Shown here in pieces: positions 1,871 through 63,426 of a stretch of 64,000 nt of DNA (positions are counted from its first letter, which is position 1; each line of letters begins with the position of its first letter). Made by a program: the position numbers and the translations under genes. The notes under the pieces were generated by a model. That model had not been told where the DNA came from, did no database searches, and saw only the letters and a program-made list of their open reading frames with translations. The DNA is from Patescibacteria group bacterium. GTDB lineage: Bacteria > Patescibacteriota > UBA1384 > CAJBMM01. The DNA is taken from NCBI GenBank assembly GCA_041660565.1, contig JBAZWC010000002.1, forward strand, positions 287,484 through 351,483. Direction: 5' to 3'.

Positions 1871-1973
1871 CTCCTCACCCGGCCTAACGGCCACCCTCTC
1901 CTCGGGGAGGAGAGGGAAACCCTGGAACCCTTCTCCTCTAGAGGAGAAGGTGCCGGTACGGCGGATGAGGAGG
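1871..1973. repeat. Palindromic repeat family D, copy D1
   Basis: CTCCTCACCCGGCC..GGCCACCCTCTCCTC-loop-GAGGAGAGGG..CCCTTCTCCTC-loop-GAGGAGAAGGTGCC..GGCGGATGAGGAG. The core of D2 at 18005 is near-identical. Confidence 0.85.
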
Positions 1974-1988
1974 AAATAAAAGGAAAAT

Positions 1989-2783
1989 ATGCGGCAAAAA
2001 CTCGGACAACATTTTCTAAATGATCTAAACGTTATTAAAACGGCGGTTATTAATCTACCCAAACCAACTGATGATTTATTAGTGGTAGAGGTGGGGCCGG
2101 GTCAGGGCGTGCTAACGCGTGAATTACTTAACGCTGGCTATCAGGTTTTGGCGATTGAGTGGGATGAGGAGCTGCTCGCTAGTTTGCAAGCCGAATTTAG
2201 CGGTCAAAAGCGCCTACATTTAATCAATGCCGACATTCGCACATTCGACCTGGTCAAACAAATTAAATCACTCAAATTTAGCCGATACGTCATTGCTGCA
2301 AACCTGCCGTATTATTTATCGTCGTATTTCTTGCGCAGTGTGTTTGGATATCAGCTGCTACCTGAAAAGATGGTTTTATTATTGCAACAAGAGGTGGCGC
2401 AGCGTCTAGCGGCGGAAGTTGGCAGCAAGAAACGTAGTACTTTATCCATTTTAGCCCAAAGTTATTGCCGTCCCGAAGTGATATTGTCTGTCCCAGCGTC
2501 TTCTTTTACTCCGCCGCCAAAAGTAACCAGCGCTTTAGTTGAAATGGATCAGATTAAAAATCCGTTTAAGTCAAACGAAGAATCCAAACGATTTTTTCGG
2601 GTGGTGAAAGCGGGATTTGGCGAGAAGAGAAAGACCATCATTAACTCGCTTGCCGGAGGAATGCACTTGGAAAAGGACGAGATTGGGCTAATGCTGAGCG
2701 AATTAAAAATCGATTCAACTTTGCGCGCAGAGGATTTGTCGATTGAACAATGGCGAAAACTTACACAAGAATTTGAAATTTGA
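1989..2783 (+). CDS. rsmA: 16S rRNA (adenine1518/1519-N6)-dimethyltransferase
   Basis: N-terminal GQHFLND motif and a SAM-binding region VVEVGPGQGVLT. Length is 264 aa. Confidence 0.92.
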   Translation: MRQKLGQHFLNDLNVIKTAVINLPKPTDDLLVVEVGPGQGVLTRELLNAGYQVLAIEWDEELLASLQAEFSGQKRLHLINADIRTFDLVKQIKSLKFSRYVIAANLPYYLSSYFLRSVFGYQLLPEKMVLLLQQEVAQRLAAEVGSKKRSTLSILAQSYCRPEVILSVPASSFTPPPKVTSALVEMDQIKNPFKSNEESKRFFRVVKAGFGEKRKTIINSLAGGMHLEKDEIGLMLSELKIDSTLRAEDLSIEQWRKLTQEFEI

Positions 2784-2796
2784 AATTTTTAATGGC
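2770..2796. repeat. AT-rich repeat family F (F1), overlapping the rsmA stop
   Basis: gaatttgaaatttgaaatttttaatgg. Related AAATTTTAAATTTTTAATTTTAAAA elements lie downstream of several genes. Confidence 0.55.
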
Positions 2797-2797
2797 G

Positions 2798-2890
2798 GAA
2801 GGGATTTTTTCTCAGATTTCTCCCTCCGGGCGTAGTCTACGGGCGGAGCCAACGTGGTCGATTTGACAATCTCCCCGGGTCGAAATGACA
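2798..2890. repeat. Palindromic repeat family A, partial copy A1 (right half only)
   Basis: Contains TCTCAGATTTCTCC and the terminal GGGTCGAAATGACA. The left arm TGTCATTTCGAC is missing. Confidence 0.75.
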
Positions 2891-2911
2891 ATGGATTGAT
2901 GAGGTAAGTAT

Positions 2912-3568
2912 ATGTTATACGTTGTAGCAACCCCAATTGGAAATTTAGAGGATATCACAGATAGAGCTAGACGAATCTTGACGTCGGTAAGCTATATTGC
3001 GTGTGAAGACCCGAATCACAGCCGGATATTATTACAAAAAATTGGGAGTGTAGCCAAAACTATTGCTTTGAATGCTCATTCAAAATCTCCTAAAGTTGAT
3101 CAAGTAATTTCTTTGCTGCTGGCCGGAAATGACGTGGCTTACATTACTGACGCGGGTACGCCGGGTATTTCTGATCCGGGTGGGATTTTGGTTGAGGCTG
3201 CTCACAATAAAGAGATTGAGGTTTGTCCAATCCCGGGGCCATCGGCAGTGGCTTGCGCGTTATCGGTTTGCGGGTTCTGTGCTGATCAATTTATTTTTTA
3301 TGGCTACATCCCCAAGAAAAAAGGTCGTCAGACATTTTGGCTAAAATTGCAAAACCAAAAAATAACCGCTGTGATGTTTGAATCTCCAGACCGAATTGCC
3401 AAGACATTGGCCGAAATTCGTGCTACAATTAAGCCTGATAGGCGGGTGTGTATTTGCCGCGAATTAACCAAACAGTTTGAACAAATATGGCGGGGCACTA
3501 TCGCGCAAATTGAATCCGCTAAAATTATGGCAAAAGGGGAATTTGTGATCGTTTTGGAAGGTGACTAA
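2912..3568 (+). CDS. rsmI: 16S rRNA 2'-O-methyltransferase RsmI (tetrapyrrole-methylase fold)
   Basis: MLYVVATPIGNLEDIT N-terminus, typical RsmI length, and it follows rsmA. Confidence 0.9.
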   Translation: MLYVVATPIGNLEDITDRARRILTSVSYIACEDPNHSRILLQKIGSVAKTIALNAHSKSPKVDQVISLLLAGNDVAYITDAGTPGISDPGGILVEAAHNKEIEVCPIPGPSAVACALSVCGFCADQFIFYGYIPKKKGRQTFWLKLQNQKITAVMFESPDRIAKTLAEIRATIKPDRRVCICRELTKQFEQIWRGTIAQIESAKIMAKGEFVIVLEGD

Positions 3569-4623: not shown

Positions 4624-4646
4624 AGTTTAGGAAAATATCACGACTG

Positions 4647-5263: not shown

Positions 5264-5273
5264 CGGCGGGCGT

Positions 5274-5313
5274 GGGGTCGGATGACAAGAGTTGTCCGAC
5301 CCCGTTAATTTTT
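5274..5313 (+). terminator. Intrinsic terminator of island I1
   Basis: Hairpin GGGGTCGGATGACAAGAGTTGTCCGACCCC followed by TTAATTTTTT. Confidence 0.65.
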
Positions 5314-5315
5314 TA

Positions 5316-5348
5316 TATAGATTCTGGGTCAAGCCCGGGATGACAATC
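5316..5348. repeat. Palindromic repeat family B, copy B1
   Basis: TATAGATTCTGGGTCAAGCCCGGGATGACA, near-identical to B2 at 40413. Confidence 0.8.
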
Positions 5349-8480: not shown

Positions 8481-8506
8481 CAATACATCGATGGACGAGG
8501 TATAAC

Positions 8507-8543
8507 GAAAATTTTAAATTTTAAATTTTTAATTTTAAAAATT
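8507..8543. repeat. AT-rich repeat family F (F2)
   Basis: GAAAATTTTAAATTTTAAATTTTTAATTTTAAAAATT, about 30 nt near-identical to F8 at 38296. Confidence 0.7.
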
Positions 8544-8795
8544 ATGAATAAATATTTAACAAAACAATCTGCGGTTAACCAAATAGAAATGGTTCTGGAC
8601 CAAATCCGGCCGGCGTTACAAAATCATGGTGGAAACGTCGAAGTGGTTGGATTTGACAATGGAGTGGTGAAGGTAAAATTGACCGGGCATTGTCACGATT
8701 GTCTTATTTCGACCGTAACGCTCAAACTAGGAATCGAACGTGCTTTATGCGCCAATCTACCAAATTTGGTGAAAAAAGTAATTGAGGTAAAATGA
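8544..8795 (+). CDS. NifU/Nfu-like Fe-S cluster scaffold domain protein
   Basis: Nfu-type CxxC motif GHCHDC. Length is 83 aa. Confidence 0.75.
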   Translation: MNKYLTKQSAVNQIEMVLDQIRPALQNHGGNVEVVGFDNGVVKVKLTGHCHDCLISTVTLKLGIERALCANLPNLVKKVIEVK

Positions 8796-9630: not shown

Positions 9631-9755
9631 TGTCATTTCGACTCCTCGAGCGTTGTCTCGAGGGTGGAGAAATCTTTCAAAAAGACGGGAATGGATTCTT
9701 TCTTGAGATTTCTCCGACACAGTCGATCTGCGGCTCTCCTAGGGTCGAAATGACA
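9631..9755. repeat. Palindromic repeat family A, full copy A2
   Basis: TGTCATTTCGACTCCTCG..GGAGAAATCT..AGATTTCTCC..GGGTCGAAATGACA. The terminal ATG of the repeat is the mnmA start codon. Confidence 0.85.
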
Positions 9756-10823
9756 AATAAAAAACATTCAAATCAAACTGTTTGTGTCGCCATGTCCGGT
9801 GGAGTGGATAGTGCGGTGGCTGCGGCATTGTTAGTAGAACAAGGCTTCCGGGTTATTGGCGCATTTATGAAGAACTGGTCTTTGAATCAACAAGGAGTTA
9901 GTTACCAGCCGTGGGAAAACGAAGCTAACGTGGCGAAAGCGGTTTGTGAAAAACTAAAGATTCCTTTTCATATTTTTGATTTCGAAAAGGAATATCTGTC
10001 TCGGGTGGTACAATCGTTTGTCCAAGATTACGCGCGCGGACTGACGCCGAACCCCGATGTTTTATGCAATCGTGAAATTAAATTTGATCTTTTTATTAAA
10101 GAAGCGCAGAAACTGGGTGCAGATTTAATTGCCACCGGCCATTACGCTCAAATCAAACCGGTCGAGGGTCGGCTTGGATTGTTTGCAGGTGCGGATTCGA
10201 ACAAAGATCAGTCGTATTTTTTGTACACATTAGGTCAGCCCGAACTCAAATTTACTTTGTTTCCAATTGGGCATCTAACCAAGCCTGAGGTGAGAAAAAT
10301 AGCAGCGGATCTGAATTTGCCAAACGCGGCTAAAAAAGATAGCCAAGGTGTATGTTTTATCGGTCCGGTTTCAATGCGCCAATTTTTGCAACATTACCTT
10401 AAGCCGCAGTCGGGTGAAGTGGTGGACCAAAATGGGCGCGTGATCGGTCATCACGACGGGGTGATTTATTATACCGAAGGCCAGCGTCATGGCTTTAGCA
10501 CCGGCGGAAATCACGAGCCATTATATATTGCACGCAAATATATTAAGAAAAATCAGTTGGTGGTGGTGCCGGCAAACGACCCGATGTTATATTGCCAATC
10601 GGTCAATCTAATCGACTGCAGTTGGGTAGATCAACCTATCCCAGATCAAACAAAATGTTTGGTGCGAATTCGCTATCGTCAGCCGTTGCAGCCGGCAATT
10701 GTTAGTGTTAACGATGGTAAATATCAAATCGATTTTGAAAATCCAATTGAGTTTGTCAGTGCCGGCCAATCTGCAGTGATTTATTTGGGCGAGCAAGTCC
10801 TTGGTGGGGGGATAATTGCCTAA
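9750..10823 (+). CDS. mnmA: tRNA-specific 2-thiouridylase
   Basis: PP-loop VAMSGGVDSAVAA, 357 aa. Confidence 0.9.
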   Translation: MTNKKHSNQTVCVAMSGGVDSAVAAALLVEQGFRVIGAFMKNWSLNQQGVSYQPWENEANVAKAVCEKLKIPFHIFDFEKEYLSRVVQSFVQDYARGLTPNPDVLCNREIKFDLFIKEAQKLGADLIATGHYAQIKPVEGRLGLFAGADSNKDQSYFLYTLGQPELKFTLFPIGHLTKPEVRKIAADLNLPNAAKKDSQGVCFIGPVSMRQFLQHYLKPQSGEVVDQNGRVIGHHDGVIYYTEGQRHGFSTGGNHEPLYIARKYIKKNQLVVVPANDPMLYCQSVNLIDCSWVDQPIPDQTKCLVRIRYRQPLQPAIVSVNDGKYQIDFENPIEFVSAGQSAVIYLGEQVLGGGIIA

Positions 10824-13303: not shown

Positions 13304-13364
13304 TATAAACTGATTTTCAATATCGTATTGGCGGAACTTTGTGTCCGCCTTTATGATATTAACA

Positions 13365-13412
13365 AAATCTCAAATCCAAATTTTTAATTTTTAAAATTGT
13401 AATTTAGAATTT
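13365..13412. repeat. AT-rich repeat family F (F3)
   Basis: aaatccaaatttttaatttttaaaattgtaatttagaattt. Confidence 0.5.
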
Positions 13413-13423
13413 CGCCTCGTATG

Positions 13424-15536: not shown

Positions 15537-15570
15537 GTGTAGGGGCGGACTCATATGTCCGCCCTCTGGC
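15537..15570. repeat. Palindromic repeat family C, copy C2
   Basis: GTGTAGGGGCGGACTCATATGTCCGCCC. Confidence 0.85.
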
Positions 15571-16578: not shown

Positions 16579-16664
16579 GCGGATGTGGTGGAATGGCAGA
16601 CACGATAGCTTTAGGAGCTATTGGAGGAAACTCCGTGGAGGTTCAAGTCCTCTCATCCGCACCA
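16579..16664 (+). tRNA. tRNA-Leu (anticodon TAG), long variable arm
   Basis: Acceptor GCGGATG/CATCCGC, anticodon loop TTTAGGA, T-arm GGTTCAAGTCC, 3' CCA. Confidence 0.8.
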
Positions 16665-17013: not shown

Positions 17014-17118
17014 GGGGGATTTGGGGGTTTAGGGTGATTGGCTCCAGCCCGTAGGGCTTACGCCCGGAGGGGAGATCCTTGGGTTCCCCCAATGTCTCTA
17101 ATCACCCTAATTCACCTA
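17014..17118. repeat. Palindromic repeat family E, copy E1
   Basis: AGGGTGATTGGCTCCAGCCCGTAGGGCTTACGCCCGGAGG..CTAATCACCCT. Shares the GGCTCCGCCCGTAGG module with copies at 47275, 52496 and 57820. Confidence 0.8.
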
Positions 17119-17128: not shown

Positions 17129-17986
17129 CTAATTTTTTCCCACCGGGCTAGTGACGGCTCCGGTATTTGAGTCATATAAAATATCACGGTTAAGTGGGTC
17201 TTTGGGGATTTCGGTCAGATAGTGTTTTTGTACTAACTCGTTCAGATCTTTTGGGTAATGACCGAATTTATTTTTGTAATCTTTAATCATATTAGTTAAT
17301 CCTTGCAAGATGGTGTAGTGATCGACAAACAGTTTGGCGCGATCTTTAAAGTATTGCGTATCACTACTTTCCGCCAATCCTTCAAAAATCGCCAATGCGG
17401 TTTGGTAATCATTTGATCGATCAAACTCAACTGCCGATAAAAATTTGGTTTTAGACGGCGCTCCGGGTTTTTCTGAAGCGCGTTTATATGCGGCGGCCGA
17501 TTGCGCGTAATCTTTTTTGTTGATGTAGTAAATTGTGCCCTCGTAATATGGAATTTCCCAGTTGTTTGGTAACGCAACCTCGCCGTCTTTTAGAATTTGC
17601 AAAGCTTGATCAGAAAAACCTTCACCGGAGAGCACGATGCCGGAAAATTGATACGGGTAGCTGAATTTATTATCCAGAGACAAAATTGAGCTCATTAATT
17701 TGGGTAATGCTTGATATTTGCCGTATGGATCACCCCCGCCGTAGTATTGGATGGTGTTTAGCCACAATAAATCTGCCATAAAATTATTGTTTCCAAGCGC
17801 GCTAATTTTGAGCATATCTTTATTCGGCACTATAGGTTCAATAATTTGATTATAAGTTACAGTCGATTTGCGCCACTGGCTGGCACGTACCCGGTCAAAA
17901 TTGAGCTGCGTTAATACTACCAGCGCTAAAAGGGCTGGGACGGTAAGCCATTTAATTATTGAGGTGATTATTTTATTCATTTTCAT
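17129..17986 (-). CDS. Hypothetical exported protein
   Basis: N-terminal signal/anchor WLTVPALLALVVLTQL, 285 aa, no recognisable motifs. Confidence 0.6.
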   Translation of the reverse strand: MKMNKIITSIIKWLTVPALLALVVLTQLNFDRVRASQWRKSTVTYNQIIEPIVPNKDMLKISALGNNNFMADLLWLNTIQYYGGGDPYGKYQALPKLMSSILSLDNKFSYPYQFSGIVLSGEGFSDQALQILKDGEVALPNNWEIPYYEGTIYYINKKDYAQSAAAYKRASEKPGAPSKTKFLSAVEFDRSNDYQTALAIFEGLAESSDTQYFKDRAKLFVDHYTILQGLTNMIKDYKNKFGHYPKDLNELVQKHYLTEIPKDPLNRDILYDSNTGAVTSPVGKN

Positions 17987-18004: not shown

Positions 18005-18104
18005 CTCCTCACCCGGCCTACGGCCACCCTCTCCTCAGGGAGGAGAGGGGATCCCCTTCTCCTCGTTTTTGAGGAGAAGGTGCCTGTCAAGGCGGATGAG
18101 GAGG
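18005..18104. repeat. Palindromic repeat family D, copy D2
   Basis: Near-identical to D1: CTCCTCACCCGGCCTACGGCCACCCTCTCCTCAGGGAGGAGAGGGG..CCCTTCTCCTC..GAGGAGAAGGTGCC..GGCGGATGAGGAGG. Confidence 0.85.
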
Positions 18105-18113: not shown

Positions 18114-18884
18114 CTATAATTCCTGCTTGCGGAAGGCAGCGTTGGCCAAAAACAACAATATCGCACTGTAAACAACGGTATAAACTATCACTAATGAAAT
18201 TTGCTCAGCAGTGGGCTGGATATGGTAAACCACATTATTGCGCAAATTAAATTTTTCTAAATTTGGAAAGATGTAATAAACCGCTTTGTACAAATCTTTA
18301 ATCCAAACAGGGCTATCTTGGCTTAAATTTACCACCGTTGCCGATGAATGGCCGATAATAAAGATCGCTAAGGCGTAAACGGTGCTTATAACCGCCGAGC
18401 AAAAACTGGAAAACATTACGGTTAAGGCAATAAGCAACACCATCTCTAGATAAGTATAAAACAGGGCAAGAATCAGCGTGACATCAATAACTTGCCAGCC
18501 TAGCCGAATGACCAACAAAGCTCCAAAAATTACTGACATCATGCCAATTAACATCAAAACGGTTAAACACAAGCCCGCAAATTTGCCTAATAAGTAGGTG
18601 AGGCGGGTGATTGGGCGCGCCAGCACTGTGTATGCGGTGCGTTGGTCTAACTCTTTGGCGATACTGGAGCCGCTTAGGAAGATGGTGATGATGATGCCGA
18701 AGAAAAATATGCCGGTTAAGCCAAGTTCGATGATAATTTTGCTGTCTTGGTCTAGCGAGATTGAGCCCAAAAATAAGGTAGCGCCAAGCAGTAAAACGGC
18801 AAAAACTCCCAGAGTGATTAAAATTCGATCACGGATGCTTTCTTTGTAGGTGTTAAGGGCTATGACTTTTATGGCATTGATCAT
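18114..18884 (-). CDS. ABC-2 type transporter permease
   Basis: Six hydrophobic helices. Start overlaps the stop of the upstream ATPase gene. Confidence 0.75.
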   Translation of the reverse strand: MINAIKVIALNTYKESIRDRILITLGVFAVLLLGATLFLGSISLDQDSKIIIELGLTGIFFFGIIITIFLSGSSIAKELDQRTAYTVLARPITRLTYLLGKFAGLCLTVLMLIGMMSVIFGALLVIRLGWQVIDVTLILALFYTYLEMVLLIALTVMFSSFCSAVISTVYALAIFIIGHSSATVVNLSQDSPVWIKDLYKAVYYIFPNLEKFNLRNNVVYHIQPTAEQISLVIVYTVVYSAILLFLANAAFRKQEL

Positions 18885-19927: not shown

Positions 19928-20801
19928 GACTATGAAACAAAAAGTCAAACAAATTATCGTGCTCGCGGGGCCAACTGCTAGTGGTAAAACCGATCTGGCT
20001 GCTGATTTGATCAAAAAATATCCGCTCGAAATAATTTCGGCTGATTCGCGACAGGTTTATCGTGGGCTGGATATTGGTAGTGGCAAAGATAAAACCGTGC
20101 CACAGTTCTTAATTGATGTGGTTAATCCGGAGAACGGATTTACTGTGGCGGATTTCAAGAAACTAGCCGAAGAAAAAATTGAACAAATCTGGCAAAGAGG
20201 GAACACGCCCCTAATTGTCGGCGGCACCGGCTTTTACATTGAGGCATTGATGTTTGATCAAACCACAAACCAAACGCCGCCAAATAAGTCGATCAGACAA
20301 AAACTCGAGCCGCTTTCCGGTGCAGAGCTATTAGAAATAATCGCGCGAGTTGACGCGATGACCGCTAGCAAAATCGATGTCAATAATCGCCGACGTTTAA
20401 TTCGCGCAGCGGAAATTATCTCGGCAACAAAAAAGCCGATTGCCCCGGTTTCGCATCAGTTGCGCACCGACGCTCGGGTTAGCTGCTTCGTGCTTGATGT
20501 ACCGCGTGAGGAGCTGTATAAGAGAATCGATAAACGAGTAGATGATCGGTTGAAGATCGGAATGATCGAAGAAGTTGAGCATTTAATCTTGGCCGGAGTC
20601 TCAAAAGAGTGGTTAGTTTCACTCGGGCTTGAATATCGCGCCATCACTCGATTCCTATCAGGTGAGGTTGGGCGCGACGAAATGGTGAAACAGTTAAAAT
20701 ATGACACGCACGCCTTTGCCAGACGGCAAATATCATATTTTAAGAGATGGAAATTCGCCGAAGCACTAAGCAAAAAAAGAATTTTAAATTTTAAATTTTA
20801 A
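19926..20801 (+). CDS. miaA: tRNA dimethylallyltransferase
   Basis: P-loop AGPTASGKT and DSRQVYRGLDIGSGK. The start is ATG 19926 or ATG 19932; the ORF-track start at 19893 is unlikely. Confidence 0.88.
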   Translation: MTMKQKVKQIIVLAGPTASGKTDLAADLIKKYPLEIISADSRQVYRGLDIGSGKDKTVPQFLIDVVNPENGFTVADFKKLAEEKIEQIWQRGNTPLIVGGTGFYIEALMFDQTTNQTPPNKSIRQKLEPLSGAELLEIIARVDAMTASKIDVNNRRRLIRAAEIISATKKPIAPVSHQLRTDARVSCFVLDVPREELYKRIDKRVDDRLKIGMIEEVEHLILAGVSKEWLVSLGLEYRAITRFLSGEVGRDEMVKQLKYDTHAFARRQISYFKRWKFAEALSKKRILNFKF

Positions 20802-20828
20802 ATTTTCAAAACTTGGAATTTAATTAAT
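20776..20828. repeat. AT-rich repeat family F (F4), overlapping the miaA 3' end
   Basis: gaattttaaattttaaattttaaattttcaaaacttggaatttaatt. It encodes the miaA C-terminus ..KRILNFKF. Confidence 0.6.
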
Positions 20829-20829
20829 C

Positions 20830-24263: not shown

Positions 24264-25747
24264 GCCGTTGCTTCCTTAAATGCCTTAGTAATGGTTTCTT
24301 CGTCCGATTTTTCTATCGTATCTTTTGTGGTCAATTCGGCTAATAATTTTGCATAGCCAGATTTTAATCCAGTCAAAAACTGCTTAGTGGTTTTGGCGAC
24401 ATCATCTATATCTACACCGTCGTAAAGTCCGTTGGTAACCGCCCAAACCAACGCAATCTGCTCGCCGACCGGTAGGGGAGAATATTGTGGCTGTTTCAGG
24501 ATTTCAGTAATTCTGGCACCGCGGTCGAGCTGGCTCTTGGTGGCATCGTCTAAGTCTGAACTAAATTGGGCAAAAGCGGCTAATCCACGATATTGTGCCA
24601 AGTCTAAGCGCAATTTTCCGGCCACTTTTTTCATATTTTTAATTTGAGCGTCACTTCCAACGCGTGAAACCGATAATCCAACGTTTAATGCCGGTCTGAT
24701 TCCTTGATAGAATAGATCAGATTCAAGATAAATTTGTCCGTCGGTGATAGAAATAACGTTGGTTGGAATGTAGGCCGAGACATCGCCAGATTGAGTTTCG
24801 ATAATCGGTAGGGCAGTAATTGATCCGCCGCCGGCTTCTTTATTTAAGTTAGCGCTGCGTTCGAGTAATCTGGAGTGCAGATAAAAAACATCACCCGGAT
24901 AAGCTTCGCGACCCGGTGGGCGACGGAGCAATAGCGAGATTTGACGATACGACCAGGCGTGCTTGGATAGATCATCATAAACTACTAGCACGTCTTGTCC
25001 TTTAGCCATGAAATATTCGGCGATAGCGCAACCGGCGTACGGAGAGAGAAAGACTAATGATGCTGGGTCTGAAGCTCCTGCCACTACCACAATGGTATGT
25101 TTTAGCGCGTTCATTTCTTCAAGTTTGGCTACAATTCTGGCGGTTTTGGACTTTTTTTGACCGATAGCAACGTAAATACAGATGACGTCGGTATCGCGCT
25201 GGTTAATGATGGTGTCGATGGCGATGGCAGTTTTACCGGTTTGGCGATCTCCAATAATCAGTTCGCGCTGACCACGGCCAATTGGAATCATCGAATCGAT
25301 GGCAATGATACCGGTTTGAATTGGCTTGTTGACCTTCTGCCTGGTAATGACGCCCGGCGCCACTTTTTCAACCGGCATCATAGTAGTTTTTTTGAACGCG
25401 CCTTTGCCGTCAATTGGTTCACCGAGTGGGTTAACCACGCGCCCGATCATCTCTTCAGATGCAGGGACGCTCATAACCTGTCCGGTGCGCTTAACGCTGT
25501 CACCGGCTTTAACCTTAGTGGTATCACCTAAAATGGCAGCTCCAACCCGAGTTTCTTCTAAGTTTAACACTAAACCAACCAAATCATCGTTAAAGGTAAC
25601 GAGCTCGCCAGACATCACCGAAGATAGGCCAGAGATAGTGGCAATTTCATCAGCCACACTCAGAACAATCCCGGATTGTCTTTGCTCCGGCGTGTATTCA
25701 ATATCGGCAAGTTGTTTTTTTAGTTGATCGATAAGGGTTTCGCTCAT
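24260..25747 (-). CDS. atpA: F1 ATP synthase alpha subunit
   Basis: P-loop GDRQTGKTA. Confidence 0.95.
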
Positions 25748-32923: not shown

Positions 32924-32930
32924 ACCGCCA

Positions 32931-35466: not shown

Positions 35467-35524
35467 ATTATCGGATCATAAAAATTATAAACAAAAATCA
35501 AACAAGAAATAGTTTAGGAGAACA

Positions 35525-37277: not shown

Positions 37278-37313
37278 CCGTAGGGGTGGACTCATATGTC
37301 CGCCCGTTTGTGG
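37278..37313. repeat. Palindromic repeat family C, copy C3
   Basis: CCGTAGGGGTGGACTCATATGTCCGCCCGTTTGTGG. Confidence 0.85.
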
Positions 37314-37322: not shown

Positions 37323-38291
37323 ATGTTCAGCCCCGATCTAAGTAAATCTCTAAAAGACATTATCGCAAATTCACCTCGAGTTTTGCTGATTTGTCATGAA
37401 AAACCGGATGGTGACGCGATCTCGTCATTACTAGCAACTCGGTTAATGTTATTTGGCCTGAATTGTTTGGACGTGCAAATGGTCAGTATAGATGGCGTGC
37501 CAAAGGCGTTTGAGTTTTTACCTGATTCAAATTTGATAAAATCCGATTTTTTACGAGGTGATTTTGAAGTCATTATTACTTTGGACTGTGGCGACTTTAA
37601 ACGCACCGGATACTCTGATCGCATAGCTAAGATGATCGAAAAGGGCACCAAATTAATTAACATAGATCATCACCCTAAAAACGATATTTTTCGGATTGCA
37701 CACCTAAATTTAAGCGATACAACATGCGCCTCAACCACGCAAATAATCTATCAACTTTGCCAGTTTTTTCATCTCAAATTAGATGTCAAATTAGCAACTT
37801 TGTTATTTGTTGGGCTTTACACCGACACGGGTGGTTTTCAGCACATCGTAACGTCGCCGGAAGTGATGCGTATGGCGGCCGAGCTGGTCTCTAGCGGCGC
37901 GCAAACCAGGCTGATCAGCCAATACCTAACCGGCACCAAATCTTCGGCGCAATTAAAGTTGTGGGGGCGAGTGATTAGCCGAGCACGAGTAAGTAAGGAT
38001 GGGGTAGTGGTTGCGGGGGTAACTCAATCAGATTTGAAAGCAGTTGGCGCTAACGAGGAGGACGTAGCGGGGCTGTTAACGATGCTAGAGACCCTAGACC
38101 AGTGTAAAATGGCGATATTGTTATGTGAAACCGCGGATGGTGTGATTAAAGGTAGTTTGCGCTCTAACAACAGCCAAATTGATGTTTCTAAAATTGCCAG
38201 ATATTTTGGGGGCGGTGGGCACGTTAAGGCGGCCGGATTCACTCTTCCAGGGAAACTGGTTATAGACAAGCACAGCGTAAGCGTGGTATAA
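37323..38291 (+). CDS. nrnA: DHH/DHHA1 phosphoesterase, NrnA-like
   Basis: DHH motif LICHEKPDGDAISS and DHHA1 GGGGH motif YFGGGGHVKAAG. The ORF-track start at 37296 lies within repeat C3; ATG 37323 is more likely. Confidence 0.8.
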   Translation: MFSPDLSKSLKDIIANSPRVLLICHEKPDGDAISSLLATRLMLFGLNCLDVQMVSIDGVPKAFEFLPDSNLIKSDFLRGDFEVIITLDCGDFKRTGYSDRIAKMIEKGTKLINIDHHPKNDIFRIAHLNLSDTTCASTTQIIYQLCQFFHLKLDVKLATLLFVGLYTDTGGFQHIVTSPEVMRMAAELVSSGAQTRLISQYLTGTKSSAQLKLWGRVISRARVSKDGVVVAGVTQSDLKAVGANEEDVAGLLTMLETLDQCKMAILLCETADGVIKGSLRSNNSQIDVSKIARYFGGGGHVKAAGFTLPGKLVIDKHSVSVV

Positions 38292-38295
38292 TAAG

Positions 38296-38348
38296 ACAAA
38301 ATTCTAAATTTTAAATTTTTAATTTTAAAATAATTGGAATTTGTTTTT
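38296..38348. repeat. AT-rich repeat family F (F8)
   Basis: AAAATTCTAAATTTTAAATTTTTAATTTTAAAATAATTGGAATTTG. Confidence 0.7.
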
Positions 38349-38349
38349 G

Positions 38350-38420: not shown

Positions 38421-38888
38421 ATGAAAGATAAATCGTGGACAGAAGCACAATTAAGGTCAGCCGCCCAAGAATCTCGAAGTATCCGTCAGATTTTACAGAG
38501 ACTTGGATTAGCAGAGGCGGGCGGAAATTACGCTCAGATTAAAAAATATTTGCACATTTACAATATCAATATGGAAAATATTAAAGGTAAATCTTGGTGC
38601 AAAGGGTTGAATGTCGAAGGACATCCAAGAGTGCAGTTAGATCAATTATTGGTAGAAAACAGTAGTTTCCAAAGTTACAAGCTAAAAAATCGACTTTTCA
38701 ATTCGGGGTTAAAGCCCAGAAAATGTGAAGAATGTGGGTGGTCAAAAATAACGCCAAGCGGTCATTTGCCTTTAGAAATACATCATATCAATGGGGATCG
38801 GTCTGATAACAGAATAAATAATTTAGTCATTCTGTGTCCCAACTGTCATAGTCAAAAGCCGAATTATCGTGGTAGGCGAAGAGATTAG
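38421..38888 (+). CDS. HNH homing-endonuclease-like protein
   Basis: HNH zinc-finger core CEECGW..HLPLEIHHINGDRSDNRINNLVILCPNCH. Confidence 0.8.
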   Translation: MKDKSWTEAQLRSAAQESRSIRQILQRLGLAEAGGNYAQIKKYLHIYNINMENIKGKSWCKGLNVEGHPRVQLDQLLVENSSFQSYKLKNRLFNSGLKPRKCEECGWSKITPSGHLPLEIHHINGDRSDNRINNLVILCPNCHSQKPNYRGRRRD

Positions 38889-38895: not shown

Positions 38896-38980
38896 GCCCG
38901 GGTGGTGAAATTGGCATACACGCGACACTTAAAATGTCGTTTCGAAAGAATTGCGGGTTCGAGTCCCGCCCTGGGCACCA
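38896..38980 (+). tRNA. tRNA-Leu (anticodon TAA), long variable arm
   Basis: Acceptor GCCCGGG/CCTGGGC, anticodon loop CTTAAAA, T-arm GGTTCGAGTCC, 3' ACCA. Confidence 0.82.
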
Positions 38981-38995: not shown

Positions 38996-39030
38996 CCTCG
39001 TCATTCCGGGCTTGACCCGGAATCTATGTA
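38996..39030. repeat. Palindromic repeat family B, copy B3 (inverted orientation)
   Basis: CCTCGTCATTCCGGGCTTGACCCGGAATCTATGTA. Confidence 0.8.
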
Positions 39031-39041
39031 AAAAGAAAAAA

Positions 39042-40306: not shown

Positions 40307-40412
40307 TGCTCGACTCCTTTGGTATCCGAATCGATGAAAAGATCGACAGGAGTGATTGCTTATCCTGCTATGCCGTGATCATATAATTATTTGTCTTGTG
40401 ATTCAAGCTATT

Positions 40413-40446
40413 TATATAGATTCCGGGTCGAGCCCGGAATGACAGC
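40413..40446. repeat. Palindromic repeat family B, copy B2
   Basis: TATATAGATTCCGGGTCGAGCCCGGAATGACAGC. Confidence 0.85.
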
Positions 40447-47258: not shown

Positions 47259-47412
47259 GTGATTAGCTGATTAGGCTCCGCCCGTAGGGCTACTCCTCTC
47301 CGAGCCGTAGGCTCTACGAGCTGGAGGCCGGAGGGTGATTAGGGGTTCCATAGGGGCGATACCTCGTTTCACTTCGGAAACCGAAGGTTAACACGAATCG
47401 CCCGTTTCGGCG
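47256..47412. repeat. Palindromic repeat family E, copy E2 (long composite)
   Basis: GGTGATTAGCTGATTAGGCTCCGCCCGTAGGGCT..GGAGGGTGATTAGGGG. Carries additional hairpins ending CGAATCGCCCGTTTCGGCG. Confidence 0.8.
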
Positions 47413-49138: not shown

Positions 49139-49148
49139 ACTGCTCGTA

Positions 49149-49272
49149 TTGTCATTTCGACTCCTCGACATTCGAGTCGAGGGTGGAGAAATCTCAAAAA
49201 AGACTGGAAGGGGTTTTATCTCAGATTTCTCCAACACAGTCGTGTTGACACACTCCTAGGGTCGAAATGACA
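49149..49272. repeat. Palindromic repeat family A, full copy A4
   Basis: TGTCATTTCGACTCCTCGACATTCGAGTCGAGGGTGGAGAAATCTC..AGATTTCTCC..CTAGGGTCGAAATGACA. Confidence 0.85.
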
Positions 49273-49288
49273 GGCAAAAGGATTGTTT

Positions 49289-50568: not shown

Positions 50569-52496
50569 GTATATTTGATCAATATGAAAACAGCACCGAC
50601 CAGATAGATCATAGCGATGTGGTAGATTATCGTTACACCGATCCGGAGAGTGAAGACAATCCGGAAATGGCAGAAAAACCGAGTAGTCATCATTATCGAG
50701 GATTCGTTTATCTATCATTGCTGATTTTTGGATTGTTAATATGGCGTTTAGTGGATGTACAAATTGTACAAGGAACAAATAACGCCGTGTTGGCCAAGGC
50801 GAATAGTGTTCGTCAGGTAATTAATCCGGCAAAACGGGGAGGTATATTTGACAGTCGCGGGGTGTGGTTGGCTCGAAACGTAGCTACATTTCAAGTTCAA
50901 CTTACCCCCAGCAATTTGCCGAAAAAGTTATCCGACCGAAACAAGGTTTACGATCAGATAACGAATGCACTTGGCTGGACAGAGGCCGAAAAACAAAGTC
51001 AGATCACGCAAATTGAAAAAAAGATATTGGTTAGCATTGAAGCAATTGTGCTTAAAGATGAAATGACCAGGGACGATGCCTTAATTTTGACCGAAAAGTT
51101 AAATAATATCGACGCGGTGGCAGTGGTTCCAACCAGTATTCGGCAGTATAACAATCCAACAAATGGATTATCGTTTATTTTGGGATATGTGGGTAAAGCA
51201 AACAATGATGATATTATTAACGGCTCGTATCATCTAAATGATACGGTGGGCAAAAACGGTTTGGAATCGAGCTATGATATTCAAATGCGCGGAACAGACG
51301 GGGTAATCCAAGAGGTAGTAGATAGCCGTGGAAAAGTTTTACAGGCCCTGAACGATAGTAATTCCGCCCCGGTTTCTGGTAATAATTTGGTTTTAAAAAT
51401 CGACAACAAATTGCAAAACATCATGTACACCGAACTGTCAAAAGGATTGCAGACAGCGGGGATTACCTCTGGCGTGGCAATTGCGATGGACCCGCGTGAC
51501 GGCGGTATTTTGGGCATGGTGTCGTTGCCCGCGTACGATAATAATTTGTTTGCCAACGGTGTGTCTAGCGATGTCTATCAAAAATTATCCACCGATCCGA
51601 CCAAGCCGTTATTTAGCCGGGCCACTCAGGGTACTTATCCTTCTGGATCAACCATTAAACCGTTTGTGGCCTCGGTTGGGCTAAATGACGGGGTAATTAC
51701 CGAAAATACCAAAATTGATACTCCTCCCGAGATTACCATTGGTCCTTGGCGATTTCCAAACTGGCAGAATAAATTAATTACAGGTGTAGATGTTAAGAAA
51801 GCTATTGCAGAATCGAATGACATTTTCTTTTATGCTGTTGGGGGTGGATATGACAAGATTGGTGGGCTTGGTGTAGATCGGTTGTCTAAAGGATTAGGAC
51901 TGTTTGGATTTGGCAAGAAGACCGGCGTAGATTTGCCATCGGAGTCGACCGGGTTAATTCCAAACGCCGCTTGGAAGAAAAGCTACAAAGGAGAAAGCTG
52001 GTATATTGGCGATACTTATCACATGGCCATCGGGCAAGGTGACCTGTTGGTAACGCCATTGCAGTTGGTTACGGCGTTGTCGGCTGTGGCAAATGGCGGC
52101 ACGCTATATCAGCCCCATATCGTCGACAAAATTATGGATGATAATGATAAGGTGGTATCAACCATTAAGCCAACAGTTGCGTCAAGCAATTTTATTGATC
52201 CCAAAAATATTCAGATAGTACGCGAGGGGATGCTGCTGACCAACACCAGCGGATCTGGGCGGTCATTGGCTACTTTGCCTGTGCCATCCGGAGGAAAGAC
52301 CGGTACGGCGCAGGTGGGGGCAAATAACGAGTATCTAAACGCTTGGTACGAGGTTTTTGCGCCGTATGACAACCCAACCATCGCATTAGTGGTATTGGGC
52401 GAAAAAGGCCCGCTAACCAACGAAGGTAACTCAACCGCTGTGCCAGTAGCCAAAGCGATTTTGCAGCAATATTTTAGTCCGGATTATAGTAAATAG
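50565..52496 (+). CDS. mrdA: Penicillin-binding protein 2 (elongasome transpeptidase)
   Basis: SxxK (STIK), SxN (SND) and KTGTA motifs. N-terminal TM helix. Confidence 0.88.
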   Translation: MSIFDQYENSTDQIDHSDVVDYRYTDPESEDNPEMAEKPSSHHYRGFVYLSLLIFGLLIWRLVDVQIVQGTNNAVLAKANSVRQVINPAKRGGIFDSRGVWLARNVATFQVQLTPSNLPKKLSDRNKVYDQITNALGWTEAEKQSQITQIEKKILVSIEAIVLKDEMTRDDALILTEKLNNIDAVAVVPTSIRQYNNPTNGLSFILGYVGKANNDDIINGSYHLNDTVGKNGLESSYDIQMRGTDGVIQEVVDSRGKVLQALNDSNSAPVSGNNLVLKIDNKLQNIMYTELSKGLQTAGITSGVAIAMDPRDGGILGMVSLPAYDNNLFANGVSSDVYQKLSTDPTKPLFSRATQGTYPSGSTIKPFVASVGLNDGVITENTKIDTPPEITIGPWRFPNWQNKLITGVDVKKAIAESNDIFFYAVGGGYDKIGGLGVDRLSKGLGLFGFGKKTGVDLPSESTGLIPNAAWKKSYKGESWYIGDTYHMAIGQGDLLVTPLQLVTALSAVANGGTLYQPHIVDKIMDDNDKVVSTIKPTVASSNFIDPKNIQIVREGMLLTNTSGSGRSLATLPVPSGGKTGTAQVGANNEYLNAWYEVFAPYDNPTIALVVLGEKGPLTNEGNSTAVPVAKAILQQYFSPDYSK

Positions 52497-52518
52497 GCTC
52501 CGCCCGTAGGCTGATTAG
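52496..52518. repeat. Family E repeat fragment E3
   Basis: GGCTCCGCCCGTAGGCTGATTAG. Confidence 0.65.
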
Positions 52519-57652: not shown

Positions 57653-57848
57653 CCTCCTCGTCCGCCCGCTGGGCACCTTCTCCTCCACCCTCCTTCGCAA
57701 TGCTTCGGAAGGGCAGGGAGGAGAAGGGCTTTTCTGGTATTTCCCTCTCCTCTCAGAGAAGAGGGTGACCGTAGGCCGGCCACCGGCTCGTAGACCCTCC
57801 GGGCGTAAGTCCTACGGGCTGGAGCCTACGGCTCGGAGAGGTGAGGAG
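57653..57848. repeat. Composite palindromic repeat: family D (inverted) fused to a family E module (D3/E4)
   Basis: CCTCCTCGTCCGCC..CACCTTCTCCTCCACCCTCC..GGAGGAGAAGGG..CCCTCTCCTCTCAGAGAAGAGGG..CCTACGGGCTGGAGCCTACGGCTCGGAGAGGTGAGGAG. Confidence 0.8.
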
Positions 57849-57907
57849 TCTTGTATATAAAAGAACAGGACCGAGACGCGCGATGGCGTCCCGGTCCGAA
57901 AGCGGAG

Positions 57908-58141
57908 CTACTTCTCCAGCTCCTGCATGATGTGCTTGAAGTCGCCGTCGTCGAGACGTCGCGCTATTCGGTCGAATTTGCCAGCGACGTCCATTGGATC
58001 TGGGCCTTCATGTATAACAATATCTCTTCCGTCGACCATCTTGACCCTAATGTTGCTCAGGCCGGGTTGTGCTAGCGTCTGATCGGCATAAAACGGCTCG
58101 ATGCAATCGACATAGTCAGAGTTGATAACGAGCCTCTTCAC
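57908..58141 (-). CDS. Hypothetical 77-aa protein on GC-rich micro-island I6
   Basis: GTG start (or an internal ATG). The region between the repeat composite and repeat C4 is GC-rich. Confidence 0.4.
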   Translation of the reverse strand: MKRLVINSDYVDCIEPFYADQTLAQPGLSNIRVKMVDGRDIVIHEGPDPMDVAGKFDRIARRLDDGDFKHIMQELEK

Positions 58142-58299: not shown

Positions 58300-58330
58300 T
58301 GTAGGGCGGACACACGGGTCCGCCCCTACA
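58300..58330. repeat. Palindromic repeat family C, copy C4
   Basis: TGTAGGGCGGACACACGGGTCCGCCCCTACA. Confidence 0.8.
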
Positions 58331-58356
58331 CAGGTCGTGATGTAGCGAAAGGAAAT

Positions 58357-61248: not shown

Positions 61249-61279
61249 CCGTAGGGGCGGACCCATGTGTCCGCCCGCC
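61249..61279. repeat. Palindromic repeat family C, copy C5
   Basis: CCGTAGGGGCGGACCCATGTGTCCGCCCGCC. Confidence 0.8.
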
Positions 61280-61308
61280 AACAGAAAAAAAATGCCACGG
61301 GAGGTAGT

Positions 61309-61755
61309 ATGGATGAGAAATCTCTAAAATTCTTAATTAATTCTAGACAAAGCACTTATGCCTCTGGGATGAAGGCGGATGAGATCAATGGTGGTAAAAC
61401 GTACGTTATTAAATCAGGTAATTTAGAGTATCGCGATACGTATTTCGATCAGCACTTAATTTTTCAAGGTCAAGAAGTTTTGTTTGAAGATGGCCAGCCA
61501 GTTTGGTCAATGAGCTATAGGGGTGCGGCGGTCGAGGGAGTTGATGCTGGTGCGGTTTTTGCAGTTTTGCAAAAATTTATTAAAGAATATTCCGACAAGG
61601 TCAGATTCGGTAACAACTTTGAAAAAGATGAAGGCGAATATAAATATAGTTGCTCCGCAACGGGGGATCCAAGTGAGTTCAGTGGCCGCGAAGAGATTTA
61701 TCAAAATGGAAAACTGGTTCATTGGATGAATTATTTTGGCGGATCTATCCAATAA
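61309..61755 (+). CDS. Hypothetical protein (about 148 aa)
   Basis: RBS GGGAGG before ATG 61309. No motifs recognised. Confidence 0.55.
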   Translation: MDEKSLKFLINSRQSTYASGMKADEINGGKTYVIKSGNLEYRDTYFDQHLIFQGQEVLFEDGQPVWSMSYRGAAVEGVDAGAVFAVLQKFIKEYSDKVRFGNNFEKDEGEYKYSCSATGDPSEFSGREEIYQNGKLVHWMNYFGGSIQ

Positions 61756-61824
61756 ATGTAATAAGGTAAACGAAGGATAGCTAAGGATTGCGAAGGATGG
61801 CAAGGGAGGTAGTGGCCGCGAGAT

Positions 61825-62190
61825 CTATTTTTTAGCAGTAAGGCGGACGGAGAATTTGAAGCCGCGTTGCGAACCATCGGTAACCTCAATTACCTCGCTT
61901 TTTCTTTCTATGCGATATTCTATTAGCTCTTCCGAAAGCATCTCTTTTAAGGTCATAATTTCGTCGCGATTTTCTTTGATTTCAACTTGTAATTTATTAT
62001 TTGCGGGTTGGTTGTAGATTTCGGACAGAATTTGTTTTTTCTTGCTGCTGGCTACTTTGGCTTCCTCGGCGGCGTCAGTGTAAGCTGAGTCGTTGGTTAA
62101 GGCCTCGTTAAGCATATCCTTCGCTATTTTGATTTCACCCTGTAGCTTCTCAATTAGTTCGATTCGCCTTTTTATCGTATCTGTATCCAC
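61825..62190 (-). CDS. Hypothetical coiled-coil protein (121 aa)
   Basis: Convergent with the preceding gene. Charged helical N-terminus, beta-rich C-terminus. Confidence 0.55.
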   Translation of the reverse strand: MDTDTIKRRIELIEKLQGEIKIAKDMLNEALTNDSAYTDAAEEAKVASSKKKQILSEIYNQPANNKLQVEIKENRDEIMTLKEMLSEELIEYRIERKSEVIEVTDGSQRGFKFSVRLTAKK

Positions 62191-62346
62191 GTTGCTCCTT
62201 TTCTTAATGCGTCTAGTGTAACGTGAATTTATTCTGTTGCCAAGCTAGAAAGAATTGGGACGATTGGAGATATTGGATAAATTGGGGAGTCCAAGCTTGA
62301 TAATAATCACCAATTTATATATTCTTAATACGAAATAGGAGATCTA

Positions 62347-63258
62347 ATGCATACAAAACTTGCTATTATTGGTTCGGGGCCGGCGGGATTAACCGCCGCC
62401 ATTTATGCTGCCCGTGCCGAGTTAAAACCAATTGTTTTTGCCGGTGCCGTACCAGGCGGACAACTAACCGAAACAACCGAGGTAGAAAACTTTCCCGGGT
62501 TTGATGATGGCATAATGGGGCCGGATTTAATGGCCAAAATGCGTTTGCAAGCCGAGAAATTTGGTTCAGTTACTGTTGATGCCTCGGTGGACAAGGTAAA
62601 CCTCAAAAAACAGCCATTTACAATTGAATCAGGGGATAAATCGTATTCGGCTGACGCAATTATTGTAGCTACCGGTGCCAGCGCGATGTGGTTAAACGTT
62701 AAAGGGGAAACGGAATTTAAGGGAAAAGGCGTTTCGGCTTGCGCCACTTGCGATGGTTTTTTCTTTAAGAATAAGGCAGTGGTCATTGTTGGCGGCGGTG
62801 ACGCAGCCATGGAAGAATCAATGTTTTTGACTAAATTTGCTTCTAGCGTCACTATTGTTCATCGTCGAAATGAATTTAGAGCTAGCAAAATTATGCAGGA
62901 AAAGGTACTAAATAATCCTAAAATCAAAGTGGTTTGGGACTCTGCGGTGGTGGAGATAAAAGGTGGGGCAAAAGTTGAAGCAGTAGTGGTGGAAAATATT
63001 AAAGATCAATCAAAATCTGAAATTAAAACCGATGGAGTGTTTGTGGCGATCGGCCATAAACCAAATACAGATATTTTCAAAGATCAGCTTGAAATTGATG
63101 AAAAGGGCTACATCGTTTTGCACGGTGAAACAAAGTCAAACGTCGAAGGTGTATTTGTTGCGGGTGATGTGTATGACCACCGATATCGACAAGCTATTAC
63201 CGCCGCCGGGTCTGGCTGTAAAGCGGCCATAGATGCAGAGAAATACTTGGCTGAGTAA
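62347..63258 (+). CDS. trxB: Thioredoxin-disulfide reductase
   Basis: FAD motif GSGPAGLTAA, redox-active CATC, NADPH-binding GGGDAAMEE. 303 aa. RBS AGGAG. Confidence 0.93.
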   Translation: MHTKLAIIGSGPAGLTAAIYAARAELKPIVFAGAVPGGQLTETTEVENFPGFDDGIMGPDLMAKMRLQAEKFGSVTVDASVDKVNLKKQPFTIESGDKSYSADAIIVATGASAMWLNVKGETEFKGKGVSACATCDGFFFKNKAVVIVGGGDAAMEESMFLTKFASSVTIVHRRNEFRASKIMQEKVLNNPKIKVVWDSAVVEIKGGAKVEAVVVENIKDQSKSEIKTDGVFVAIGHKPNTDIFKDQLEIDEKGYIVLHGETKSNVEGVFVAGDVYDHRYRQAITAAGSGCKAAIDAEKYLAE

Positions 63259-63282
63259 AGCATCACGACTTGATACGCGGAA

Positions 63283-63426
63283 CCCTTCTCCTCACGAGGA
63301 GAAGGTGCCCGTAGGGCGGATGAGGAGCTCCTCACCCGGCTTTCAGCCACCCTCTCATCAAGACAAAACTTTGCAGTTTTGTCTTGTAGTTCCTTTCCGA
63401 CACGGATCTATCGGGAGGAGAGGGAA
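63283..63426. repeat. Palindromic repeat family D, rearranged copy D4 with a nested hairpin
   Basis: CCCTTCTCCTCACGAGGAGAAGGTGCC..GGCGGATGAGGAGCTCCTCACCCGGC..CCACCCTCTC[ATCAAGACAAAACTTTGCAGTTTTGTCTTG]..GGGAGGAGAGGGA. Confidence 0.8.

Follow-up and report, generated by a model that had tools for sequence, protein, structure and literature searches.

The stretch of DNA considered here (hereafter the window) is 64 kb long, has a G+C content of 44%, and belongs to a metagenome-assembled genome of a bacterium of the Patescibacteria (candidate phyla radiation, CPR). Its genes include those for a G5/DUF348 protein, KsgA, MltG (YceG), PBP2, SerS, SecA, and TrxB, and eight tRNA genes are its only matches to Rfam (Rfam 15) at the gathering score. 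Between the genes lie several families of structured repeats. The family with which we are chiefly concerned, D, consists of pairs of an inverted module whose arms are purine-rich on one strand and pyrimidine-rich on the other, whereas a second and shorter element, E, occurs both alone and inside other repeats. All copies of D and E in the window are intergenic. The window contains four D composites (D1 to D4), i.e., eight half-modules, and a fifth (D0) lies 1.2 kb upstream of it on L121, a contig of the same genome that reaches 3.2 kb upstream of the window.

When the eight half-modules are aligned in one orientation, they resolve into a single module of ~46 nt, which comprises, in this order, a pyrimidine arm (CCCT(T)CTCCTC), a loop (2-6 nt in intact modules), a purine arm (GAGGAGA(A/G)GG), a T, a mini-hairpin, and a tail (GG(A/G)TGAGGAG). 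The pyrimidine and purine arms form a 10-bp hairpin, with no more than one mismatch in any of the 10 half-modules (the eight plus D0a and D0b), and the second loop, of 12-13 nt, folds as a 4-bp GC mini-hairpin (e.g., GCCC-GTA-GGGC or GGCC-GTA-GGCC). The module exists in two flavours, 'a' (GAGAGGG ... GGGTGAGG) and 'b' (GAGAAGG ... GGATGAGG), and all five composites are inverted a/b pairs, joined head-to-head in D1-D3 and tail-to-tail in D4 and D0; a hidden Markov model (HMM) of the module finds no solitary copy in the 64-kb window. In D1-D3, both tails are outermost and pair with each other, which is the outer stem of the preliminary description of this DNA.

D1 (1871-1973) lies between the G5/DUF348 gene (stop 1855) and ksgA (start 1989). 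Its a-module (1871-1916, minus strand) is built of the arm CTCCTCACCC (1871-1880), a mini-hairpin (1881-1892), and the hairpin (1894-1903/1907-1916), and a linker (1917-1927) joins it to the b-module (1928-1973, plus strand), with the hairpin at 1929-1938/1941-1950, the mini-hairpin at 1952-1962, and the mirror tract GGATGAGGAG at 1963-1972. D2 (18005-18104), composed of an a-module (18005-18049, minus strand) and a b-module (18054-18104, plus strand), is flanked by two minus-strand genes, the ABC-2 permease gene (18114-18884) and an open reading frame (ORF; 17129-17986). D1 and D2 share one sequence orientation, yet the gene pairs around them are transcribed oppositely. D3 (57653-57848) begins 3 nt past the serS stop codon and has the opposite orientation, with a b-module (57653-57727, minus strand) that carries a 33-nt hairpin inserted in its loop (57685-57717) and an a-module (57743-57848, plus strand) in which a 61-nt E-type cluster (57780-57840) separates the mini-hairpin from the mirror tract. 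D4 (63283-63426), which follows trxB and precedes an ABC ATPase gene (from 63476), has a b-module (63283-63327, plus strand) that directly abuts an a-module (63328-63426, minus strand), the loop of which carries ~54 nt of foreign sequence (63360-63413); this sequence, in which there is a hairpin (63359-63386), can be aligned with the 5' portion of a further repeat family, F. D0 (L121 1944-2037) is a clean, insert-free tail-to-tail pair of b and inverted a in a DnaB-UvrD spacer of 659 nt that is otherwise unexplained. Three of the four composites in the window have one orientation and one has the other, all four lie between ORFs, and each D unit begins 3-21 nt past a stop codon.

The D and E sequences quoted in the preliminary description were found where it had placed them, and most of what it said of the individual copies holds. 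D1 and D2, which it regarded as near-identical, align colinearly (82% over 108 columns, E 2e-21); D3 does align to the other D units in reverse orientation and is fused to E-type sequence within its a-module; and half of D4 matches D1 at 92% over 49 nt. D4 had been read as a unit with permuted halves and an inserted extra hairpin. The insertion is borne out, whereas the permutation is not: because D0 presents the same tail-to-tail pair in clean, insert-free form, D4 represents an alternative type of junction rather than a circular permutation. The repeats are also more than low-complexity GA/CT runs. Besides the colinear alignment, an HMM built from the modules of this genome finds exactly the eight half-modules in the window and nothing else, and a scan for a pyrimidine arm, a purine arm, and a mirror tract returns only the D modules, compared with 0-1 matches in 30 shuffles. 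The non-repetitive parts, namely, the mini-hairpin and the linker, are likewise conserved among D modules. Moreover, the D units fold well beyond dinucleotide shuffles (z scores of -4.3 to -6.9 as RNA and -4.0 to -5.6 as DNA), with a predicted RNA stability of -63 to -100 kcal/mol.

The tail has no complement inside its own module. It is instead the purine arm reversed, with T replacing the central A: in D1b, the arm GAGGAGAAGG reversed reads GGAAGAGGAG and the tail is GGATGAGGAG, and in D1a, the corresponding sequences are GGGAGAGGAG (arm reversed) and GGGTGAGGAG (tail). When the tail is set against the hairpin, allowed triads (G.G-C, A.A-T, and T.A-T) are found at 9-10 of 10 positions in nine of the 10 half-modules and at 8 in D3a. 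For a module in isolation, the predicted fold has both the hairpin and the mini-hairpin, and its 10-nt tail has no pairing partner; for D1 and D2, the fold of minimum free energy is a single long hairpin joining both halves. As every tail is the mirror of the hairpin in its own module, a single base distinguishes the a tail from the b tail, and this explains the one C.A/G.T mismatch in the outer stem of D1, D2, and D4. Among 104 modules from other organisms that had not been selected by pattern, the flavour-defining hairpin base agrees with its mirror partner in 96 (GG in 64, AA in 32, and discordant in 8), and from this positional concordance, the mirror constraint looks real. A comparison of mirror with outer-arm agreement among metagenome copies, 17 of 74 of which could be parsed, is confounded by the search pattern and only suggestive. 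In single-stranded DNA, both hairpins would be expected to fold while the tail stays free, and the tail could then fold back along it to form a triplex of the purine-motif type with the first hairpin.

This architecture closely resembles that of a known group of repeats. A literature search with the strings GGGGAGAGGG and GGGTGAGGGG pointed to Holder et al. 2015 (PMC4666352), which deals with the E. coli elements named BoxC, later PIT (potential intrastrand triplex) elements, and then TMECO (Bachellier et al.; Hoyne & Maher; PMC4666352). TMECO elements follow the pattern CCCTCNCCC N3-6 GGGNGAGGG N3 GGGNGAGGG; they are always intergenic, show no strand bias, often form inverted type-A/type-B pairs, are not associated with transposons, phages, or plasmids, and are associated with local sequence instability (PMC4666352). 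D shares with these elements the succession of a pyrimidine arm, a loop, a purine arm, and a mirror purine tract with a central T (GGGAGAGGG .. GGGTGAGGG), and the three-block triad arrangement is present in its half-modules. Like them, it is intergenic, multi-copy, and without strand preference, has inverted pairs of sub-types, and has no known function nor, among the 30 window ORFs scanned, an associated transposase. However, its arms are richer in GA (GAGGAGAGGG, GAGGAGAAGG), its second loop has 12-13 nt with a mini-hairpin as opposed to 3 nt in TMECO, it lacks GGG runs and thus G-quadruplex potential, and its host is a CPR bacterium and not a proteobacterium. The strict TMECO pattern has no match on either strand of the window, whereas a relaxed form (loop 2 of up to 20 nt, A/G alternatives) has five, all in D; the definition used for searches in the ITxF database admits loops of 1-6 nt, and D falls outside it by its second loop. 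Because of this loop, the lack of a match to the published pattern, and the lack of any BLAST match of D1 in E. coli, D should be regarded as a variant and not as a strict member of TMECO. A 47-nt consensus of the a type, derived from D-related metagenome copies, nonetheless matches 5408 of 5426 complete E. coli genomes, the median number of places being 18 per genome and almost all of them chromosomal and under no annotated feature; one such copy reads CCCTCACCCC-AA-CCCTCTCCC-TGT-GGGAGAGGG-TT-GGGGTGAGGG. A G-quadruplex, which was also considered, is plausible for the GGG-rich copies of the E. coli type and was rejected for D, in which only GG runs occur.

The module is by no means confined to this genome. 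A pattern for the b-module (GAGGAGAAGGTGCC N4-8 GGCGGA) scanned over species-representative genomes gave at least 120 loci, compared with ~5 expected (our own estimate, assuming uniform composition), and several genomes contributed many contigs. In ~110 of the matches listed, ..TGAGG follows and the complementary arm CCTTCTCC precedes, neither of which is part of the pattern; matches lacking ..TGAGG fall within coding regions of high-GC genomes and seem to be due to chance. In at least eight phyla, the sequence of the b-module is almost unchanged, those appearing in the titles of matched records being Planctomycetota, Bacillota, Bacteroidota, Alpha-/Gammaproteobacteria, Desulfobacterota, Chloroflexota, and Acidobacteriota. 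It is found, for example, in Planctomycetaceae; Oscillospiraceae/Faecousia, Lachnospiraceae, and Selenomonas; Bacteroidales and Lacibacter; Mesorhizobium, Rhizobium, Shinella, Ensifer, Devosia, and Maricaulis; Xanthomonas and Legionella; and Desulfobulbaceae, Anaerolineaceae, and Vicinamibacterales. A pattern for the a side matched 88 metagenome contigs, mostly of 55-68% G+C and in a BoxC-like four-block form. Whole head-to-head a/b units with the layout of D occur at about twenty distinct places in other organisms. In Rhizobium plasmids, for instance, such a unit lies between ABC-transporter genes and is 74% identical to D1 over 98% of its length. As the a/b layout recurs, together with the identical single mismatch of the outer arms, in Rhizobium, Planctomycetaceae, Bacillota, and soil metagenomes, it is a trait of the family and not the product of a local rearrangement. 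The preliminary proposal of ongoing recombination among the D and E elements, which had been based on permutation, inversion, and nesting, is not demonstrated by these data, the supposed permutation of D4 being a tail-to-tail junction.

Neither phages nor insertion sequences could be linked to this distribution: only six viral contigs carry the pattern, and in Oscillospiraceae, for which an insertion-sequence link was considered, the sequence shared around the module extends over only ~170 nt. At a permissive threshold, the Rfam matches of D1 are sub-threshold noise, and across 38 loci from other organisms, no match falls on the motif. In an uncultured bacterium (bin-329; L043 3900-4010), two b-modules form a direct tandem, so that inverted arrangements are not the only ones; this organism is probably related to ours, as one of its genes is 73% identical at the DNA level to window positions 24546-25267. 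In Bacteroidota (loci L010, L020, L039, L088, L093, L095, L105, L109, and L113), short tandem arrays of 7-8-nt units (e.g., tttcagaatttcagggtttcaggg, gagtgaaaaattaagagtgaaaaa, and ggagacaaggagactgg), as well as GGAGAGGGGTTGGGGGGTGAGG, flank the b-module. The E elements of the window have similar flanks of the GGTGATTAG type, and this likeness in sequence suggests that a mosaic organisation may be shared with the b-modules of Bacteroidota.

Within the window, the repeats can be viewed against the gene order G5/ksgA/TP_methylase/Fic/cysS/EamA/TatD/NifU/folD/mnmA, which is kept in two relatives (L216 and L218). These are syntenic but distant (~55% protein identity); the window KsgA is identical to a protein that NCBI assigns to a Patescibacteria MAG, and its nearest relatives after that are themselves only ~55% identical. 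The G5-ksgA spacer, which has 133 nt with D1 in the window, has 13 nt and is empty in L218, and in L216, it has 188 nt and is occupied by a different repeat family. The ksgA-TP_methylase spacer has 128 nt with F and E in the window, 1 nt in L218, and 0 nt in L216, and the folD-mnmA spacer has 130 nt with F in the window and 0 nt in L216, whereas the two genes overlap in L218. As the repeat-bearing spacers are not conserved in the relatives, they represent insertions into operons rather than conserved regulatory spacers. D elements thus occupy intergenic spacers, including those inside operons, and the relatives are without them at those sites.

It is reasonable to ask how such elements are maintained. 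That they are chance similarities of GA/CT-rich low-complexity tracts, with no true family behind them, is extremely improbable. The arms are homopurine and homopyrimidine, so that short matches come easily, and one E copy (E3) rests on 16-17 nt and may possibly be a chance similarity if taken alone; for D, however, this explanation is already refuted by the colinear alignment, the selectivity of the HMM, the near-empty shuffles, the conserved mini-hairpin and linker, and the presence of a D-type unit in other genomes. An RNA-level role in cis, in which transcribed stems would act as 3'-end protectors, RNase III processing sites, or non-canonical terminators, is close to the preliminary suggestion of terminators or structured 3' UTRs, and we consider it distinctly unlikely. 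The start of every D unit shortly after a stop codon and the extreme predicted stability are consistent with such a role, as is the position of some modules elsewhere, which stop 5-10 nt short of a start codon, so that GAGG is spaced from it as a ribosome-binding site would be. An orientation bias with respect to the upstream gene in low-GC genomes (30 to 10) also hints at it. On the other hand, none of the D units has a T-run after it on the transcribed strand, and terminator-like calls overlap D in just two cases, namely, an internal cross-hairpin of D2, which is on the non-transcribed strand, and the foreign hairpin of D4 (63359-63386). In addition, D1 and D2 are oppositely oriented to transcription, the units sit in operons that are contiguous in relatives (D1 parts genes that are 13 nt apart in L218), and no Rfam family matches. 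Mismatches in the hairpins of 261 distinct modules are strand-symmetric (T.G, 3.5% per G, vs. C.A, 3.1% per A), and hence no RNA strand appears to be under selection. A plain RNA hairpin requires neither homopurine/homopyrimidine arms nor mirror symmetry, and for the PIT elements of E. coli, earlier work, as cited in PMC4666352, found neither promoter nor terminator activity. Two more specific RNA-level ideas were rejected. A permuted ribozyme (a hammerhead- or twister-like three-way junction) has no conserved core or Rfam match in its favour, and D4 is a tail-to-tail pair. As a ribosome-binding site, the GAGGAG tail would lie 16-18 nt from the next start in the window, ksgA has its own AAGGA, and the base after GAGG varies among phyla. 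A likeness to 16S rRNA helix 45 was also set aside, since the excess of CCGTAGG/CCTACGG is mild (12 vs. ~8 expected, by our own estimate) and CCGAAGG takes its place in other phyla.

At the DNA level, D invites comparison with REP (repetitive extragenic palindromic) sequences and the BIMEs (bacterial interspersed mosaic elements) and REPINs (REP doublets forming hairpins) built from them. All are short palindromic intergenic repeats; D, moreover, has two sub-types alternately inverted with fixed linkers, as in BIMEs, its doublets can fold into one long hairpin, and no target-site duplication is seen. The a/b doublet might accordingly be a non-autonomous mobile unit that is cut and copied as single-stranded DNA by a single-copy transposase of the RAYT (REP-associated tyrosine transposase; Y1/HUH) type encoded elsewhere in the genome, although we regard this as unlikely. 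Inverted doublets, the hallmark of REPINs (PMC3116915, PMC3337134), account for five of five composites in this genome, target-site duplications are lacking as in REPs, GTAG occurs in several mini-hairpins, the window also has a GTAG-headed palindrome family (GTAGGGGCGGAC..GTCCGCC), and the units are present or absent at syntenic sites. Nevertheless, within the ~67 kb of this genome that the analysis covered, no RAYT was found, the 30 window ORFs scanned being without a Y1 transposase domain. REPIN/RAYT systems are described as lineage-specific and vertically inherited (PMC3116915, PMC3337134), whereas this module is common to several phyla, being near-identical in at least eight. Head-to-head and tail-to-tail doublets both occur, Holder et al. 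saw no link of TMECO to mobile elements (PMC4666352), and the strand-pure purine/pyrimidine arms and the mirror repeat of D set it apart from REPs. Miniature inverted-repeat transposable elements (MITEs) offer a further parallel, as the outer arms are inverted repeats, but on inspection of the sequence, the flanks of D0-D4 share no direct repeat. Rhizobial genomes, too, are described as full of structured intergenic repeats of unexplained function, among which PMC2573895 mentions RIME (Rhizobium-specific intergenic mosaic elements) and Sm-repeats. D may be related to these: Rhizobium, Shinella, Mesorhizobium, and Ensifer carry whole a/b units, and the rhizobial unit aligned to D1 (74% over ~100 nt) is intergenic in ABC-transporter operons.

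Taken together, D is probably a lineage-specific expansion of very widespread, non-coding interspersed DNA repeats of the BoxC/PIT/TMECO kind, and it is as DNA that these would be maintained and would spread. The substrate for copying, nested loop insertion, and rearrangement, either through template switching during replication or through some enzyme, could be the forms in which they make a hairpin, a cruciform, or a triplex-prone single strand. The inverted pairing of a and b is much like the alternation of REP types that BIMEs show. If adjacent mRNAs are affected, by a very stable stem that would be read through, this may be secondary. Several points weigh against this reading. The triplex is predicted from sequence, and Holder et al. 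observed the TMECO triplex when single strands were isolated but neither in duplex DNA nor in vivo (PMC4666352). The concordance between flavours and mirror bases may reflect two old founder types and not many independent covariation events, and at ~55% protein identity, the empty sites show that spacers are unconserved, not that insertion was recent. In the low-GC genomes, the module lies on the strand of the upstream gene in 30 cases vs. 10, although this is based on a crude gene call and many copies are non-independent. Finally, no copying mechanism was found: on inspection, the D flanks are without target-site duplications, and none of the 30 window ORFs scanned with Pfam has a transposase domain.

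Family E, which the preliminary description had also recognised, is likewise a genuine repeat family. Its core reads GGCTCC(A)GCCCGTAG..CCGGAGGG (the end can also be written ACGCCCGGAGGG), and five copies are present in the window, including one that had been overlooked (2822-2850). In E1 (17026-17116, plus strand), located between tRNA-Leu (16579-16664) and the 3' end of the minus-strand ORF 17129-17986, the core (17040-17071) is part of an element of ~90 nt, which the inverted repeat TTAGGGTGATT / AATCACCCTAA delimits. The core in D3 (57795-57826, minus strand) is 97% identical to that of E1 over 32 nt, and the overlooked copy (minus strand) lies in a family-F element (2790-2895) in the ksgA/TP_methylase spacer. 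E2 (47274-47335, plus strand), downstream of mltG, is expanded: both of its ends match the E core, and its middle holds an inverted partial copy (47314-47328, minus strand). E3 (52496-52511, plus strand) is a truncated core, marginal alone, that starts on the final base of the stop codon of PBP2, within the 65 nt that separate the convergent PBP2 and pyrG genes. An E 15-mer occurs three times with up to two mismatches, compared with 0.18 expected. By itself, the core has no significant structure (z -0.2 to -1.2), and within 1.47 Mb of loci from other organisms, it has no match, so that it was found in this genome only. E is therefore an element in its own right, GC-rich, short (29-32 nt), and restricted to this lineage, which inserts itself into other repeats. 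Cyanobacteria are said to have small dispersed repeats that do the same (reportedly in work of Elhai et al. from 2008), and E, ~30 nt long and nested in D3 and in the F element at 2790-2895, behaves like them.

Family F comprises elements of ~125 nt with the ends TGTCATTTCGAC ... GGAGAAATCT and ... GGGTCGAAATGACA, which share 71-86% identity (2790-2895, 9631-9762, 35344-35468 on the minus strand, and 49148-49279). A further F-like copy, in L216 (9850-9995), occupies the G5-ksgA spacer of that relative. The preliminary view of the repeats as modular, present in both orientations, and nested is well founded: the E copies in D3 and F, together with the hairpin in the loop of D3 b and the F-like insert in D4, show that nesting is real and involves at least three families.

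Other repeats and features of the window deserve mention. The GTAG-headed family, which resembles classic REPs (GTAGGGGCGGAC-N6-GTCCGCC(C)), has copies at 15538-15563, 37279-37304, 58303-58344 (minus strand), and 61250-61275 and a weaker one at 13324-13349. The 5' end of the predicted secA ORF contains the copy at 58303-58344, and because the SecA domain begins only at residue 28, the true start is probably downstream of the repeat. A small palindrome family (GTCATTCCGGGCTTGACCCGGAATC) is found at 5310-5344, 39000-39035, and 40408-40443, with ~91% complementarity between copies, and resembles the 'GTCATT..CGA' hairpins beside b-modules in loci of Clostridia (L019, L037, and L041). Hairpins with T-rich tails, similar to terminators, occur at 63359-63386 (in D4, after trxB) and at 57868-57897 (minus strand); the latter is just right of D3 in the serS-secA spacer of 637 nt, which also contains a 77-aa ORF (57908-58141, minus strand). 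Phased A/T tracts (AATTTTAAATTTTAAATTTTTAATTTT) with a period of ~10-11 lie upstream of genes and tRNA genes (2765-2793, 8499-8559, 13354-13414, 20769-20829, 30277-30337, 32919-32979, and 38289-38349) and look like curved-DNA promoter-upstream elements. Between one of these tracts and tRNA-Leu (38896-38980), there is a 155-aa ORF with an HNH endonuclease domain (38421-38888, plus strand), followed, after the tRNA gene, by the palindromic repeat at 39000; judging from its domain, it may be a free-standing nuclease of the homing type.

To our knowledge, repeats of the BoxC/PIT/TMECO type have been known for thirty years and have neither an accepted function nor an accepted means of spread. D adds to them an expanded BoxC-like form, whose second loop contains a mini-hairpin and whose a/b pairing is fixed. 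Triplex searches limited by loop length would miss this form, which is common to at least eight phyla almost base for base and thrives in a Patescibacteria genome, where scarce non-coding DNA is expected. Such elements swell the intergenic spacers inside conserved operons and create spurious ORFs, and they are likely to be break points in metagenome assemblies. Their cross-phylum spread also makes the question of function testable by comparison, for example, through the co-occurrence of genes with copy number or the co-variation of mirror and hairpin. What remains most interesting is the near-identity of the module across phyla, including the CPR, with no known function or mobilising machinery. 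It is conceivable, although rather doubtful, that the a/b module is a single pan-bacterial non-coding element, near-identical from the CPR to Proteobacteria, Bacillota, Bacteroidota, Planctomycetota, and Chloroflexota, that is recognised by a conserved machine or by a horizontally travelling enzyme. If so, it would be either a functional structural signal in DNA or a new kind of mobile element that crosses phyla, the machinery for which has yet to be found, and its persistence in a streamlined CPR genome of the ~1-Mb class would argue that the module is more than junk.

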